From a virus (Duplodnaviria; Caudoviricetes): a DNA stretch of 64,000 nt. Shown piece after piece: positions 30,900 through 38,676 of the stretch. Positions within the stretch are counted from its first letter, which is position 1. Each line of letters starts with the position of its first letter. Under the pieces are notes generated by a model. That model searched no databases. It saw nothing but the letters and a program-made list of their open reading frames with translations, and was not told the DNA's origin. Location of the stretch: the IMG/VR virus record IMGVR_UViG_3300032237_000809, positions 61,504 through 125,503 of that record; one strand, 5' to 3'. The position numbers and the translations under genes were made by a program.

Positions 30900-31003
30900 T
30901 CCTCAAGAAAATTTAAATGAAGAATTGGTCTGGGAAGAAGTTGAAAATTGGTCCTCAAGAAAATTTAAATGAAGAATTGGTCTGGGAAGAAGTTGAAAAT
31001 TGG
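30900..31003 (+). repeat. Perfect 52-bp tandem duplication
   Basis: 30900-30951 identical to 30952-31003. Confidence 0.92.
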
Positions 31004-31514
31004 GTAAATTCTCTTTTAGAAGAAGGATATGACTTGGGAGATTATGCTTGGGAAGAAATGTATGAGGAATATTTGAGTGAAGTTCCCATGACTGGTAGCA
31101 ATCGTCCCACTAAATTAAGTGACCCGTTAGCAAATACAGGACGCGCTATAGGAAGTGCAGCACGTTCTTTTGTTACGGGTTCCTCTAGACCAGGCAATAC
31201 TGGATCTCAATCTACGAGGGCAACACAACCTTCACCAGGAACTTCGACTGGTGGGGGAGGATATGCTGCCGGCCGTACTACAAGTTCACCGGTAACACCA
31301 TATCGTGCAAATGATCCTAGAAGAACTGATACTAGTACAAGATCAAGATTTGCTCGTCCAATGAATGCAGGAACTCCAAGTACAGTTGCCGTCAGAGGAA
31401 CTGGTGGATCTTCTACACAAAGACCACCAATTGGATCTTTACCTGCAAGTGCAAGACAACCAACACAATATCCAGCAGGAGTTTCTACTGGTGTTGGTGG
31501 TGGAAATGCTGGTG

Positions 31515-31712
31515 CCTCTAGACCCGCTCCTGCTGCCCCTGCTAGACCAGTTGCTAGACCCTCTGCTGCCGCTCCTAGACCCGCTGCTAGTGCCCCTGCT
31601 GCCGCTCCTAGACCAGTTGCTAGACCGTCTGCTGCTCCTGCTCCTAGTGTCCCTAGATCCGCTACTAGTGCCCCTGCTGCCGCTCCTAGACCCGCTGCTA
31701 GTGCTCCTAGTA
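31515..31712 (+). repeat. Imperfect coding repeats (Pro/Ala/Arg/Ser-rich)
   Basis: Recurrent gctcctagacc / gctagtgcccctgctgcc units encoding PAAAPRP.. Confidence 0.75.
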
Positions 31713-32317
31713 TATCAAAATCTACATCTCAAGCACCTAGTACATCCCCTGCTGCAACAACTGGTAATCCACCATTAGCACCAAAACCATTACCCCCAAT
31801 CATGGGTAAACCAAGTCTTTCATCGCAAGCAGCAGAAATTCGTGCCATGAGACAAAGATCTCAACAACGTATTATCTCACAAGGTGGAACTCCAGCAACT
31901 GCATTGGTTCAAAGTTTTGATCCATTTGATGTTGTATTGGGACATCTAATTGATGAAGGTTATGCTGATACTGAAGAATCAGCACTCCAAATTATGGCAA
32001 ATATGAGTGAAGAGTGGAGAGATGGAATTCTTGATGAAGCAAAAACTGTTATGAGTGTGACATCACCTTCTGAAAAATCCAGAAGATTAAATATATCCAA
32101 AGCTAAACCTTCAGAAAATTTGGAAGGTTAAAGAAGACTGTCTGCTGCCAGAGATATGAAACAACAGGATGTTGATCGTAGGGCTCCTCAAATTGAAAAA
32201 AAAAAAATTAAAAGAAGACATAATATTAATTGAAGACTACTTTCCAAACTGTTCATATAGAGGTCTTCGGACCTCTTTTTTTTATAAATAAGTTTATACA
32301 GAAAATATTTTATTAAA

Positions 32318-33853
32318 ATGTCTAACCTATCAACAGAAGTTTTTGGAGATATGAATTTTCTTTATGAGCATATTGCAACTAAAGAAAATGAAAAACTTAA
32401 TGAAAACTCTGAATACTATGACGAAGAATTTGCAGAACTTGTAGAGAATATTATTTCTACTATTTCTTTATCAATGGTCTATGAAGGTTATAGTGCAGAA
32501 GGAATTTTATCATTTCTTGCAGATTTTTCAGAAGAAGATATCGTTGAAAGATATTTAAATTTTGATGAAAATATTCTTACGGAAAGTGTAGTTCCTGAAG
32601 AGTATATTGTTGAACAATTAGATATTTTTGATAACGCCATTTCTGAAGGTTTAGGAACAGTAATTGGAAGAGTTGCTAAAGGTGCAGCTTCCCTGGCAGG
32701 AAGAATTGTTTCAAAACCTGCAAGAATGAAGGTTGCACAAAAACTCATGACTAGCACAAATCCTGCTAGAACAGGAAAGGCAGTTGATAGATTGGCAAGA
32801 ATGAAGTTGAACAAGGCAGGAGCTCCTGCGGATGTGACTAAAGGTTTAGTAGATGCTGCACCAAATATTTCAACAAAAGCTAGATTAATAGCAACTGCTC
32901 CTGTAATGGGTAAGGTCGTTAAGGGTGTACAAAAAGTAAAAGATATTGCCAGAGGTGCAAAAGCAGCATTAACGGGTTCAACTGCTAAAAAAATTGGTTT
33001 GGGTGCTGCAGCATTAGGTGCTGCTACTGGAGCAGGTTATATTGGTGGTAAGATGTCGGGAGCAGGTGGTGGTCAAGGATCTTCACCAGCAATTGCAAAA
33101 TCAACAGGTAAACCCTCTGACAATTTTATGCAAGGTAGTTCTCTTGCTAAACTTGGTGGAAGAGAAGGTAGAGTTAAAGGTGGAGAATTTAGAAGTATTA
33201 ATTGGACGCAACAATCTAGAGATAGGTATAACGCAGCAAATCCATCTACAAAACCTACAGCATCTGCTGCATCTACACCTTCTGCTCCTAGTGGCAGTGG
33301 TGGTGGTTCTGCTGCATCTTCTGGTGGCGGTGGCGGTGGTGCTGGAACAAGAGCACCTTCTGCTGCAAGAGCATCTTCTCCATCAAAAGCATCCTCTGCT
33401 ACAAAGGCAAAAGAAACGGGTAAAACTCCAGCAGGAGAGACACCAATGCAGACTTGGGCAAGAACTAATCCAAAACTTGCTGCTAAAGTAAAACTTGGTC
33501 AGTCTGGATACGATGAAATTTCTGCAAAAAGAACTGTACCTGGACCTTATGAAAAACAGGATCAAACTCCAACAACTGGACCAGAACCAACAGAAGCACA
33601 AAAGACTCAAGCAGGATCAGATGTTGCTGCATATCAGGCAGCAGAAAAGGAAAGATTTAATAAAAAGCAAAAAGAAGTAGCAGCATTAACACAGAAAGAA
33701 TCTTATGATGCATATGATTTGGTAATTGAATATTTACTTCATACTGGACATGCAGATACAATCTCTGAAGCAGAATATGTAATATCAAATTTTGATTCTG
33801 ATATGCTTGATACTCTTATTGAATCTACAGCAATCTGGATTGAAAATCTTTGA
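32318..33853 (+). CDS. Late modular protein, family member 4
   Basis: Acidic N-terminus, basic Gly/Ala/Ser-rich middle, degenerate end module YDAYDLVIEYLLHTGHADT..EAEY; TATAAATA at 32283-32290. Confidence 0.7.
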   Translation: MSNLSTEVFGDMNFLYEHIATKENEKLNENSEYYDEEFAELVENIISTISLSMVYEGYSAEGILSFLADFSEEDIVERYLNFDENILTESVVPEEYIVEQLDIFDNAISEGLGTVIGRVAKGAASLAGRIVSKPARMKVAQKLMTSTNPARTGKAVDRLARMKLNKAGAPADVTKGLVDAAPNISTKARLIATAPVMGKVVKGVQKVKDIARGAKAALTGSTAKKIGLGAAALGAATGAGYIGGKMSGAGGGQGSSPAIAKSTGKPSDNFMQGSSLAKLGGREGRVKGGEFRSINWTQQSRDRYNAANPSTKPTASAASTPSAPSGSGGGSAASSGGGGGGAGTRAPSAARASSPSKASSATKAKETGKTPAGETPMQTWARTNPKLAAKVKLGQSGYDEISAKRTVPGPYEKQDQTPTTGPEPTEAQKTQAGSDVAAYQAAEKERFNKKQKEVAALTQKESYDAYDLVIEYLLHTGHADTISEAEYVISNFDSDMLDTLIESTAIWIENL

Positions 33854-34411: not shown

Positions 34412-34447
34412 TGCTAAGATAGAAGCATCAATACTTCTCTAAATACT

Positions 34448-34633
34448 ATGGTTACACTTGAAACCACGCTTCGTAAATCACATGATTGGGCAATCGATAG
34501 AATTCACTTTCTAAGTGAACAAGAAGAATATGAAGATGCTCATGCAATTCAATCTGAATTTAATGAATGGTTGAATCCATATATTTCAGAACATGATATT
34601 TTTTCATTAACATATCTAGGAGAAAAAAAATGA
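34448..34633 (+). CDS. Hypothetical protein
   Basis: 61-aa ORF overlapping next start. Confidence 0.55.
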   Translation: MVTLETTLRKSHDWAIDRIHFLSEQEEYEDAHAIQSEFNEWLNPYISEHDIFSLTYLGEKK

Positions 34634-35334
34634 AAATTGATTTACTAAACTTTTTTGAATATTTTGATTCAAGAAATCCAAAACATGTTGCTGCAGTAGA
34701 GCAATTTGAACAGGACTTGGAGCAAAAACAACCAGATTTAATTCAAGATGAATCTAATTGGGTAAGAATATTCAGACAAAAATTACCAGTTCCACAACAA
34801 TTTGGAGTTCTGTCTGTTCCGTACTATCCTCAAACAGATAACTATCGGGATGCAAGTAGAACTTGCAATTCATCATCTTGTGCAATGTGCCTTGAGTTTT
34901 TTAAACCAGGCACATTAAAAGGAGAAAAAGGTGATGATGATTATATCCGAAAAGTATTTTCAATCGGTGATACAACGGATCATGCAGTTCAAACTAAAGT
35001 TCTTGCTTCTTATGGCGTTGAATCCGAATTTAGTTACACTTTGGGATTTTCTGATTTAGATAATAGTTTATCTGCCGGAAAACCAGTTGTAATTGGTATA
35101 CTTCACAGAGGACCATTATCTGCTCCTACTGGTGGTCATATGATAGTAGTAATTGGTAAAAAAGGTGAGGATTATGTTGTAAATGATCCTTATGGAAGTT
35201 TAAATGATGGATATACCGGTGCCGTATCTAATGGTAAAGGTGCTGTATATAAAAAATCTGAACTTACTCAAAGATGGTTAGATCACGGTAAAGATAAGAC
35301 TGGTTGGGGGAGAATCTTTCAATCAAAAAAGTAG
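34630..35334 (+). CDS. C39-like cysteine peptidase (lysin); N-terminal part of predicted frameshift fusion
   Basis: VPYYPQ...TCNSSSCAM, GGHMIVVIG, VNDPYG. Confidence 0.85.
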   Translation: MKIDLLNFFEYFDSRNPKHVAAVEQFEQDLEQKQPDLIQDESNWVRIFRQKLPVPQQFGVLSVPYYPQTDNYRDASRTCNSSSCAMCLEFFKPGTLKGEKGDDDYIRKVFSIGDTTDHAVQTKVLASYGVESEFSYTLGFSDLDNSLSAGKPVVIGILHRGPLSAPTGGHMIVVIGKKGEDYVVNDPYGSLNDGYTGAVSNGKGAVYKKSELTQRWLDHGKDKTGWGRIFQSKK

Positions 35335-35825
35335 AAAGTTCTATTCCTATTGAAAGAGTCTCTAAAGGAATAGAACTGATTAAACAATTTGAGGGATGTA
35401 GTTTATATGCCTATAATGATCCTCTTACAGGAGGATTACCAATTACTATTGGTTGGGGAAGCACTAAAAGTTTGACTGGAAAACCTCTTAAACTTGGTGA
35501 CAAATTGACTCAGAATGAAGCAGATTTATTATTGTTACAACATATAAAAACTGAATTTCTTCCTTCTTTAAAAAATATTCCTTATTGGAATGAGATGAAT
35601 GAAGAAATGCAGTCTGCACTTTTAAGTTTTAGTTATAATTTAGGAGCAGTATTTTATGGCAGTAGTGGATTTAATACCATTACAAAACTATTAGCGGAAA
35701 AGAAATGGAATGAAATTCCAGAAGCACTCAAAATGTATAGAAATCCTGGAACTTCGGTTGAACTTGGATTGCTTCGCAGAAGAACTGCTGAAGGTAAATT
35801 GTGGGAAGACGGTTTAAAAAAATAA
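35304..35825 (+). CDS. GH24 lysozyme domain in the -1 frame
   Basis: LIKQFEG..AYND...TIGWG, ALLSFSYNLG, GLLRRRTAE..LW; no ATG before the catalytic Glu. Confidence 0.85.
   Translation: MGENLSIKKVESSIPIERVSKGIELIKQFEGCSLYAYNDPLTGGLPITIGWGSTKSLTGKPLKLGDKLTQNEADLLLLQHIKTEFLPSLKNIPYWNEMNEEMQSALLSFSYNLGAVFYGSSGFNTITKLLAEKKWNEIPEALKMYRNPGTSVELGLLRRRTAEGKLWEDGLKK
35307..35377 (+). promoter_or_regulatory. Programmed -1 ribosomal frameshift signal
   Basis: GGGGAG 35307-12; A_AAA_AAG 35325-31 before TAG; stem AGTTCTATTCCT (35337-48) / AGGAATAGAACT (35366-77). Confidence 0.8.
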
Positions 35826-35859: not shown

Positions 35860-36048
35860 ATGACTACTCTCACTCTCGCCACACTTGCAGTAAAAGGACT
35901 TAGCGCAGCAAATTTTCAACTTTTTCTTGCTGCTCTTTTAGCAGTATCTGAGGTTCTTGGAGCAGATCCAAGAATTAAGGCAAATGGAATTGTATCATTT
36001 GTTCTTATTCAAGTTCAAAACTTTCTCAAGTCCAAAGAAACCAAGTGA
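35860..36048 (+). CDS. Small membrane protein, holin candidate
   Basis: Hydrophobic segments, basic C-tail, directly after lysin. Confidence 0.45.
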   Translation: MTTLTLATLAVKGLSAANFQLFLAALLAVSEVLGADPRIKANGIVSFVLIQVQNFLKSKETK

Positions 36049-36093
36049 TCTTTAAATAGGTTCAATTTTAAGAGGGGAGAAATCCCCTCTTTT

Positions 36094-36210
36094 TTAATGG
36101 TCAATTTTATCCTCTATTGAATCGATACAAAGAATATAAACAATAAAACCTAAAGTTGCAAAAAGAACTATTCCCAATCCTATTGTTATATCCAAAGGAA
36201 AATCATTCAT
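36094..36210 (-). CDS. Small single-TM protein
   Basis: MNDFPLDITIGLGIVLFATLGFIVYILCIDSIEDKIDH*. Confidence 0.5.
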   Translation of the reverse strand: MNDFPLDITIGLGIVLFATLGFIVYILCIDSIEDKIDH

Positions 36211-36815: not shown

Positions 36816-36970
36816 CAAATTCTAAATACTAGATTATTATTTGCAAATCCCTGTTATGAGCAGGGTACTCGTTATGAGTCTTTGATTTGAAACCTAGAGC
36901 CGTGGAAGGTGCCTCCCGAGAGGATTGGTGTACCCCCCTTTTATACGGATGTCGAATTCTATTAAAACTA

Positions 36971-37627
36971 ATGCAAAAATGCTTTACAACTGTAGCCGTT
37001 TCTCTTATTGGAGCGGTTGCAACTTCAGTGGCAACGATGCCAACACCGAGTCTCGCAAGTTCTTCTAATCTACAACCGCCATTTGCGATTGTTCCAGAAG
37101 TGCCCGTAACTCAGGAGACAGCGACCAGACTGGTTGTTCCCGAAAAACCAAAAGAAACCCGGTATATTTGTAAGGGATGTAATGAAACAGAATCCCGTGC
37201 TCTTGCTTTTATGCAGGACAAGGGAATCAAAGATAAAAATGCCCTTGCCACTATCATGGGTAATATTAAACAAGAGTCTACTTTTGTTTCTAATATCTGT
37301 GAAGGTGGTGCTAGAACCTCTTACCGAGGTTGTAGAAGTGGTGGTTATGGAATCATTCAATGGACTTCTATCGATCGATATGAAGGTCTTGGTGAACATG
37401 CTGCCCGTATTAAAGGTGATCCTTCTACCATTGAAACCCAATTAGATTACATGCTTCATGAATATGATTGGAAAATGATTGAGGATGGAATGAAAACCCC
37501 AGGAAAATCAATTACTGATTATATGCGTCTTGCTCAAAAATGGATCCGATGGGGACACCATGGAGCAAGAACTAACTTTGCTTATAACTACTCTAAAAAG
37601 TTAGTTTTGAGTGAGATTAATTCTTGA
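36971..37627 (+). CDS. Secreted phage tail-lysozyme-family muramidase
   Basis: Signal-peptide-like N-terminus; IMGNIKQES, GYGIIQWT...R, QLDY. Confidence 0.75.
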   Translation: MQKCFTTVAVSLIGAVATSVATMPTPSLASSSNLQPPFAIVPEVPVTQETATRLVVPEKPKETRYICKGCNETESRALAFMQDKGIKDKNALATIMGNIKQESTFVSNICEGGARTSYRGCRSGGYGIIQWTSIDRYEGLGEHAARIKGDPSTIETQLDYMLHEYDWKMIEDGMKTPGKSITDYMRLAQKWIRWGHHGARTNFAYNYSKKLVLSEINS

Positions 37628-38480: not shown

Positions 38481-38553
38481 GGGTCAATAACTCAGATGGT
38501 AGAGTAGCGGGCTTTTAACCTGTAAGTCGTGAGTTCGATCCTCACTTGACCCA
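38481..38553 (+). tRNA. tRNA-Lys(UUU)
   Basis: GGGTCAA/TTGACCC, loop CTTTTAA. Confidence 0.92.
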
Positions 38554-38676
38554 CTTGCCGTGGTTCAAAACTTTATATAAGATCCAGTGGGGCACTTATT
38601 TAAAGGTTTGATTTAGATTCACACTCACGCGGTAACCCATTGACAATCAGATCCAGAAATGATATGATTGTCTCAT

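Follow-up and report, generated by a model that had tools for sequence, protein, structure and literature searches.

How is a phage lysozyme translated when its reading frame opens inside another gene, one base out of phase with it? This question is raised by a locus in the window analysed here (the whole stretch of DNA, 64,000 nt), which comes from a 125.5-kb virus contig of 32.5% G+C that is 58% complete. At this locus a C39-like cysteine peptidase gene runs into a GH24 lysozyme frame at a slippery heptamer, and the first-pass annotation had proposed that ribosomes slip there. The comparative evidence (the heptamer, a hairpin behind it, closed starts and fused homologues) strongly backs that proposal: a programmed −1 ribosomal frameshift very probably makes both a peptidase and a peptidase–lysozyme fusion. 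The features of the locus are as follows, in window coordinates.

34630–34791 (+), N-terminal helical domain, residues 1–54, present in both products; modelled as a homodimer
34630–35334 (+), C39-like (papain-fold) cysteine peptidase, zero-frame product, 234 aa; PF13529, PHROG 3617 positions 1–235
35304–35306 (+), TTG in the −1 frame, a by-product of Gly-Trp codons; sole common start before the catalytic Glu
35307–35312 (+), SD-like GGGGAG, possible stimulator, 12 nt before the heptamer
35325–35331 (+), slippery heptamer A_AAA_AAG (Lys-Lys), in phase with the peptidase end
35331–35825 (+), GH24 lysozyme, −1 frame, 164 aa after the shift; PF00959, PHROG 3617 positions 247–405
35332–35334 (+), zero-frame stop TAG, read as part of Val-Glu in the −1 frame
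35337–35377 (+), predicted 3′ stimulatory hairpin, 12 bp, 17-nt loop, 5-nt spacer
36070–36097 (+), intrinsic terminator-like hairpin closing the unit, 3′ of a 62-aa ORF; a consensus match only
38481–38554 (+), phage tRNA-Lys(UUU), the would-be slipping decoder

Gene layout and the lysozyme reading frame

The two ORFs upstream of the peptidase–lysozyme locus are taken to be nrdA and nrdB, which encode ribonucleotide reductase, and in S-PM2 nrdB lies directly upstream of that phage's version of the peptidase gene. The nearest named relatives of the peptidase are those of the T4-like cyanophages S-SRM01, S-PM2 and S-CREM1 (68–71% identity). Its 3′ end reads TCA AAA AAG TAG, and the sequence confirms that the heptamer stands in the correct phase. 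The predicted products are proteins of 234 and 398 aa, the longer with the junction FQSKK-VESSIP. Because the peptidase and lysozyme halves both match PHROG 3617, the joined protein occurs elsewhere as a single ORF.

Several neighbouring features were also observed. Between nrdB and a GIY-YIG gene lie two large ORFs (30917–32131 and 32318–33853, both +), in which acidic end modules flank basic Ala/Pro/Gly-rich low-complexity segments. A candidate late promoter, CTAAATA at 34439–34445, deviates from TATAAATA and was not established. Between the lysozyme and the terminator-like hairpin is a mildly hydrophobic 62-aa ORF with a good SD (35860–36048, +); it gives a weak match to PHROG 3509, its peak hydropathy is 1.6, relatives of it were not found among the fetched loci, and a holin role for it is doubtful. 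Further downstream, a second wall-enzyme-like gene (36887–37627, +) carries Phage_lysozyme2 (PF18013) behind a hydrophobic N-terminal stretch.

The lysozyme matches PF00959 with an E-value of 5e-20 (72 bits against a cut-off of 22), is the sole PF00959 match in the 58%-complete contig, and finds GH24 lysozymes in the PDB (for example 9kbq, E 2e-11). The codons of its catalytic residues lie at 35391 (Glu), 35418 (Asp) and 35445 (Thr). These three residues are kept in 90 of 90 relatives and the median pairwise dN/dS is 0.20; by these measures the lysozyme is complete, and purifying selection acts on it.

In the window the −1 frame runs without a stop from 35298 to 35825. A scan for ATG, GTG and TTG bore out the annotation that the TTG at 35304 is the only start before the catalytic Glu; the first ATG comes at 35595. 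The TTG is without an SD (−3.1 kcal/mol upstream, compared with −7.0 for the peptidase ATG) and is probably not used. Of the 106 distinct junctions with a heptamer, 94 carry a stop in the −1 frame no more than 15 nt ahead of it, which rules out upstream initiation in those junctions. Before the Glu codon there is no ATG in 100 of the 106 and no ATG, GTG or TTG in 53. The window itself is among the 12 junctions with the −1 frame open upstream, and its TTG is formally usable.

It could be argued that the two proteins are products of separate genes with no fusion, the lysozyme starting at TTG 35304 or by near-cognate reinitiation at ATC 35322. The open frame from 35298 would permit this, the ATC lies 9 nt past GGGGAG, and relatives with an ATGA overlap show that separate, coupled lysozymes work. 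We consider it very unlikely for the window, however, since the TTG is without an SD, the same route is closed by a stop in 94 of 106 relatives, 53 of the 106 offer no common start whatever, and the heptamer and hairpin would be left unexplained. The frameshift is likely the only source of this lysozyme, judging from the sequences compared here. Two further protein families, PHROG 10457 and 7910 (both 'endolysin', 95–96 positions), match only the C-terminal half of the lysozyme, and may have arisen artificially where lysozymes that have no start were annotated in truncated form.

The junction in related loci and cultured phages

Related loci were collected from viral relatives and metagenomes and with S-PM2 and ACG-2014f as queries, and 327 were classified (class counts sum to 328 including the window). 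In the closest 80 viral relatives the peptidase ends at about the same codon in all. The largest class comprises 171 loci with a heptamer, a −1 lysozyme and no overlapping start, which fall into 56 clusters at 90% identity and whose peptidases range down to 67% identical. The heptamer is accompanied by an overlapping ATG, GTG or TTG at 20 loci; 12 have a short junction with a start and without a heptamer; and 42 have an ATGA-coupled lysozyme with an extra N-terminal domain. The remainder are 27 in-frame fusions, 48 loci with the lysozyme separate or absent, 7 truncated loci and 1 of reversed order (S-CREM1, lysozyme first). Many of these loci are resequenced relatives, and all such counts overstate independence.

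Heptamer and start codon are distributed in a complementary manner. The heptamer (A_AAA_AAG or A_AAA_AAA) is present in 171 of 171 loci without an overlapping start as against 20 of 32 with one, and is lost only where an ATGA or GTGA overlap supplies the start (12/32); a −1 lysozyme lacking both was found at 0 of the 327 loci. The association gives a Fisher p of 3e-11, or 2e-4 on clusters, both values ignoring relatedness. In the relatives the stop follows directly after the heptamer or one codon further on, and the first A of the heptamer comes from the wobble position of a codon for Ala, Val, Thr, Ile or Ser. Five loci (L063, L069, L081 from S-SRM01, L222 and L281) keep the heptamer and have an ATGA overlap as well, and are possible intermediates between frameshifting and coupled initiation.

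Fused homologues join the two domains at the corresponding point. They mostly read WGRxFxxKVE, matching the commonest predicted frameshift product, IFDVKK-VE, and in ACG-2014f (PHROG 3617, 405 aa) peptidase and lysozyme are fused in frame. Seven loci with one extra A (A7) also encode the fusion in frame, and could be real or assembly slips. On a quickly built peptidase tree the frameshift label requires 27 changes, 10 of them forced by starred branches, with the classes scattered, and peptidases that are 98% identical can precede different lysozyme modules. The scattered classes and swapped modules indicate that the link has often been remodelled and is not needed in every lineage.

Cultured phages carry the same arrangement. 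In S-PM2 the junction reads A_AAA_AAG-UAA and is followed, after a spacer of 5 nt, by an 11-bp stem, and the lysozyme frame offers no start ahead of the Glu. The annotation of the 'putative lysin' p157 of this phage begins at an internal ATG and gives a 72-aa protein that misses the catalytic residues; the stretch between p156 and p157 is unannotated, and the predicted junction peptide would end DAKK-VT. In S-CAM7 and in the related contigs L331 and L332 the heptamer at the same peptidase–lysozyme junction is U_UUU_UUU, and a 13-bp stem (z −4.5) begins 5 nt after it. The S-CAM7 slippery region (L328:1151–1200) contains a run of 8 T, the upstream −1 frame is closed, and the GenBank lysin is a fragment of 72 or 90 aa without the catalytic Glu. 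In an unrooted two-domain tree S-CAM7 falls on the fused side of a branch with support of 100 and inside the fused group at support 90, and holding the fused genes as a single clade was not rejected (p-AU 0.42). This placement suggests that the S-CAM7 shift may be a second, independent origin. In S-CRM01 (L330:1309–2618) the lysozyme match lies in two pieces across g113 and g112, which suggests that the frame is broken close to where the annotated endolysin ends.

Signals around the slippery site

The perfect 12-bp stem of the first-pass annotation (35337–35348 with 35366–35377, 5 nt past the heptamer) was found as described. The window hairpin has a z of −2.5, with equally good folding in 4 of 200 shuffles, and among 118 AAAAAAG sites on both contig strands the window site ties for the longest downstream helix (12 bp, 2/118). 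A perfect helix of at least 9 bp, beginning 3–9 nt past the heptamer, occurs at 85 of the 106 distinct junctions compared with 4.5% of shuffles, and at none of 13 fused and none of 32 ATGA-coupled control junctions. The hairpins are varied in sequence, with 52 different 5′-arm 9-mers and loops of 5–35 nt. One fixed stem register for all relatives failed, and three pairing registers relative to the Glu codon were required, each with changes on both arms. A-U, G-C, C-G and U-A swaps occur within each register; the register common to the window and S-PM2, for instance, contains UA/CG at +8 and CG/UA at +13. The registers were picked by best pairing, which biases toward pairing, while the fused and coupled controls are independent of register choice. 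The two homologue checks that had been proposed thus gave compensating stem changes in three registers and a heptamer in 171 of 171 start-less loci, and on this comparative evidence the hairpin is maintained via compensating changes.

Additional pairings of the loop were seen in part of the family. In 22 of 80 relatives the loop can pair over 7–13 bp with downstream lysozyme codons for Phe-Glu-Gly, compared with 3% in shuffles, and this pairing (in L123, L203, L213, L273 and others) is likely an H-type pseudoknot confined to some lineages. A pseudoknot was not found in the window, where the best loop-to-downstream match is 5 bp. Its loop at 35349–35357 is instead a perfect complement of the 9 nt at 35315–35323, just before the heptamer (shuffle p about 0.002, post hoc), and four further relatives have similar matches of 8–9 nt; this could be an alternative fold.

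Slippage of RNA polymerase, adding an A within the A-run, would yield the same two proteins by a different machine. Such slippage is known in Thermus dnaX, and the 8-T run of the S-CAM7 lineage and the seven loci with A7 in the DNA would accord with it. The window run, by contrast, has just 6 A and is closed by a conserved, codon-phased G, polymerase slippage usually requires runs of 8–9 or more, and a hairpin 5–8 nt downstream is a ribosomal signature. We therefore hold transcriptional slippage to be highly improbable here, and more plausible for S-CAM7 than for the window.

Still less credible is a one-base deletion in a fused gene, by sequencing error or decay, that would leave the lysozyme a pseudogene or expressed by accidental slips. 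Homopolymer sequencing errors are common and fused in-frame homologues do exist. Yet the same break recurs in 171 loci and in isolates (S-PM2, and two S-CAM7 records with another heptamer), purifying selection acts on a full-length lysozyme, and the hairpin is kept through compensating changes. The recurrence of the split in numerous independent assemblies and in isolates is an indirect answer to the objection that the window may in truth have seven As. This explanation is extremely unlikely.

The third element is GGGGAG, whose position at 35307–35312, 12 nt upstream of the heptamer, is as first described. It is encoded by conserved W-G-R codons, and its pairing to the anti-SD is alike (−6.6 to −6.8 kcal/mol) whether the relatives are frameshifted, fused, coupled or without a lysozyme. 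Being equally strong in all junction classes, it gives no sign of selection as a stimulator. In ATGA-coupled relatives these bases are found some 9 nt upstream of the lysozyme ATG, where its ribosome-binding site would sit, and the sequence may act as stimulator or as ribosome-binding site according to class. Its 12-nt spacing fits the 9–14-nt range for stimulatory SD elements given in the review PMC5009743. The annotated dnaX/IS3-type signal was accordingly upheld for the heptamer, the 3′ stem and the start-less, selected −1 frame, but not for the SD-like element, which shows no enrichment across classes.

A_AAA_AAG is the dnaX site and is slipperiest when a single tRNA-Lys reads both codons, according to the same review (PMC5009743). 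The phage encodes a tRNA-Lys(UUU), and no tRNA-Lys(CUU) was found in the 58%-complete contig; among the picocyanobacteria studied in PMC3152331, a tRNA-Lys with the CTT anticodon is likewise missing. The phage tRNA may be linked to the frameshift.

Under the preferred reading, a programmed ribosomal frameshift, ribosomes would start at ATG 34630, translate the peptidase and pause at A_AAA_AAG with the hairpin 5 nt ahead. Two tRNA-Lys(UUU) would then re-pair one base back on AAA-AAA. Ribosomes that do not slip would stop at UAG and release the 234-aa peptidase, and those that slip would read on into the lysozyme to give a 398-aa peptidase–muramidase. The sequences show the layout of the site, how widely it is kept, the lack of starts, the purifying selection on the lysozyme and the fused in-frame homologues; that ribosomes slip, how often they do so, that the products dimerise in the cell and act in lysis, and what the peptidase cleaves, we infer.

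The two predicted products and comparable systems

The peptidase matches PF13529 (E 2e-12, 48 bits against a cut-off of 24). Residues Q68, C79, H170 and D186 are invariant, the last three being the Cys-His-Asp triad. An AF2 model (pLDDT 86) has a papain-like C39 domain; a PDB sequence search with the peptidase gave no match. The best structural matches of the model are tied (3erv, 6mpz and 8z4h; Z 13.6–13.8, rmsd 2.9–3.3, 134–151 aligned residues, with 3erv at Z 13.8, rmsd 3.3 and 151 aligned), and comprise a Bacillus C39-like peptidase, leader-peptide proteases and the pseudomurein peptidase PeiR (8z4h). The fold is common to C39 and papain-like proteases with many substrates, and it is the genetic context that suggests peptidoglycan cleavage.

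The frameshift could be real without both products being lysins: the peptidase may cleave a protein of the S-layer, the envelope or the phage, or the fusion may serve as a virion or entry enzyme, a reading compatible with the frameshift explanation. Leader-peptide proteases (6mpz, 5xe8) are among the top folds, tied with the wall peptidase PeiR, and no holin was identified. Against this, the peptidase and a GH24 lysozyme are found fused or adjacent in either order (with the lysozyme leading in S-CREM1), and many cyanophages annotate such genes as endolysin or lysozyme, which is annotation and not a test. We judge this reading the less likely one, though it deserves serious weight.

The N-terminal domain offers a possible route by which the two products could associate. 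When two copies of residues 1–54 were folded together the score was 0.81, compared with 0.01 for the best of three controls; of the proteins used as a yardstick, 20 of 30 with structures solved as pairs and 1 of 23 solved as single chains attained the score mark. Contacts agreed between runs by at least 95%, with pLDDT of at least 88, and the invariant residues F8, F9 and W44 lie in the modelled interface. The model contains two copies of the cut domain only, and a small domain taken out of its protein may dimerise in order to shield its core. Based on this model the domain probably dimerises, so that short and long forms may pair. An AF2 model of a natural in-frame fusion (L186) was of low confidence (pLDDT 65, pTM 0.44), with a disordered linker. 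Separately started lysozymes at ATGA-coupled loci (L021, L030, L038 and others) carry a 55-aa N-terminal domain of their own. Its similarity to the peptidase N-domain is faint (hhalign probability 3%, E 0.014; none by BLAST), and if the two were homologous, coupled lysozymes could pair with the peptidase without fusion.

The −1 slip as such is a textbook mechanism. The closest counterparts are E. coli dnaX (tau/gamma) and IS3 (OrfA/OrfAB), which, in the review PMC5009743, share with this locus A_AAA_AAG, a 3′ stem-loop, an SD-like element 9–14 nt upstream, dependence on a single tRNA-Lys, and short and long products with a common N-terminus. The shift here yields the long product, as in IS3 and the reverse of dnaX, and the locus differs from both in belonging to a phage wall-enzyme gene pair in a cyanobacterial host and in having an SD-like element with no sign of selection. 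Frameshifts in phages are known chiefly from tail-chaperone and capsid genes. Phage −1 shifts that give a short and a C-terminally extended protein are described in the same review for the lambda G/GT tail chaperone and the T7, T3 and A2 capsid and tail extensions, with in-frame versions in relatives, as here (PMC5009743). Those products are assembly or structural proteins, whereas the extension here is a complete catalytic domain in a T4-like phage. The phage cases given in the passages of that review considered here are in tail and capsid genes only, and the review excludes T4 from the G-T shift (PMC5009743).

Two lysis-related polypeptides per locus are also made by mycobacteriophage Ms6 lysA, the lysin of Lactococcus phage phiVML3 and PlyC, whose two polypeptides assemble into one enzyme, but there the two products come from an in-frame internal start, from genes that overlap or from a pair of genes, and no frameshift fusion is involved (PMC3111421). 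The PRFect paper cites the phiVML3 study for lysins 'known to contain a frameshift' (PMC10885494); PMC3111421 describes the phiVML3 lysin as two proteins from overlapping genes. The ACG-2014f fusion in PHROG 3617 has the same two domains in the same order with a homologous junction peptide, and differs in having one frame, no heptamer or hairpin and the long form only. Our literature search, in which few subscription journals were covered, found no frameshifted lysin and no cyanophage frameshift, in agreement with the first-pass statement that no described case is known of a frameshift joining two lysin catalytic domains. The locus would thus place a known mechanism in an apparently undescribed setting, a lysis enzyme.

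Host lysis by T4-like cyanophages is, to our knowledge, poorly described. Since the shared N-domain probably dimerises, the efficiency of slipping would determine how many pairs are short-short, short-long or long-long, and thus the muramidase dose; if dimerisation holds, both forms can pair, which would give the product ratio a purpose. A bolder proposal, that the frameshift was gained twice at the same junction with different slippery sequences (in the A_AAA_AAG and S-CAM7 lineages) and rations muramidase in mixed dimers, with the peptidase subunit in excess, so that lysis is tuned at decoding, is in our estimate doubtful. The slip would depend on how tRNA-Lys(UUU), which the phage itself encodes, is charged and modified, and the physiological state of the host could for that reason influence how much muramidase is made and when lysis occurs; an example would be the delayed lysis of S-PM2 in phosphate-starved cells, from a study where frameshifting is unmentioned (PMC10976474). 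For S-PM2 and S-CAM7, the frameshift reading would give a complete enzyme in place of annotated lysin fragments. The putative system spans the window virus, these two laboratory phages and about a hundred distinct relatives, and the fused, frameshifted, start-coupled and separate states within one family would form a natural series for the gain and loss of recoding signals.
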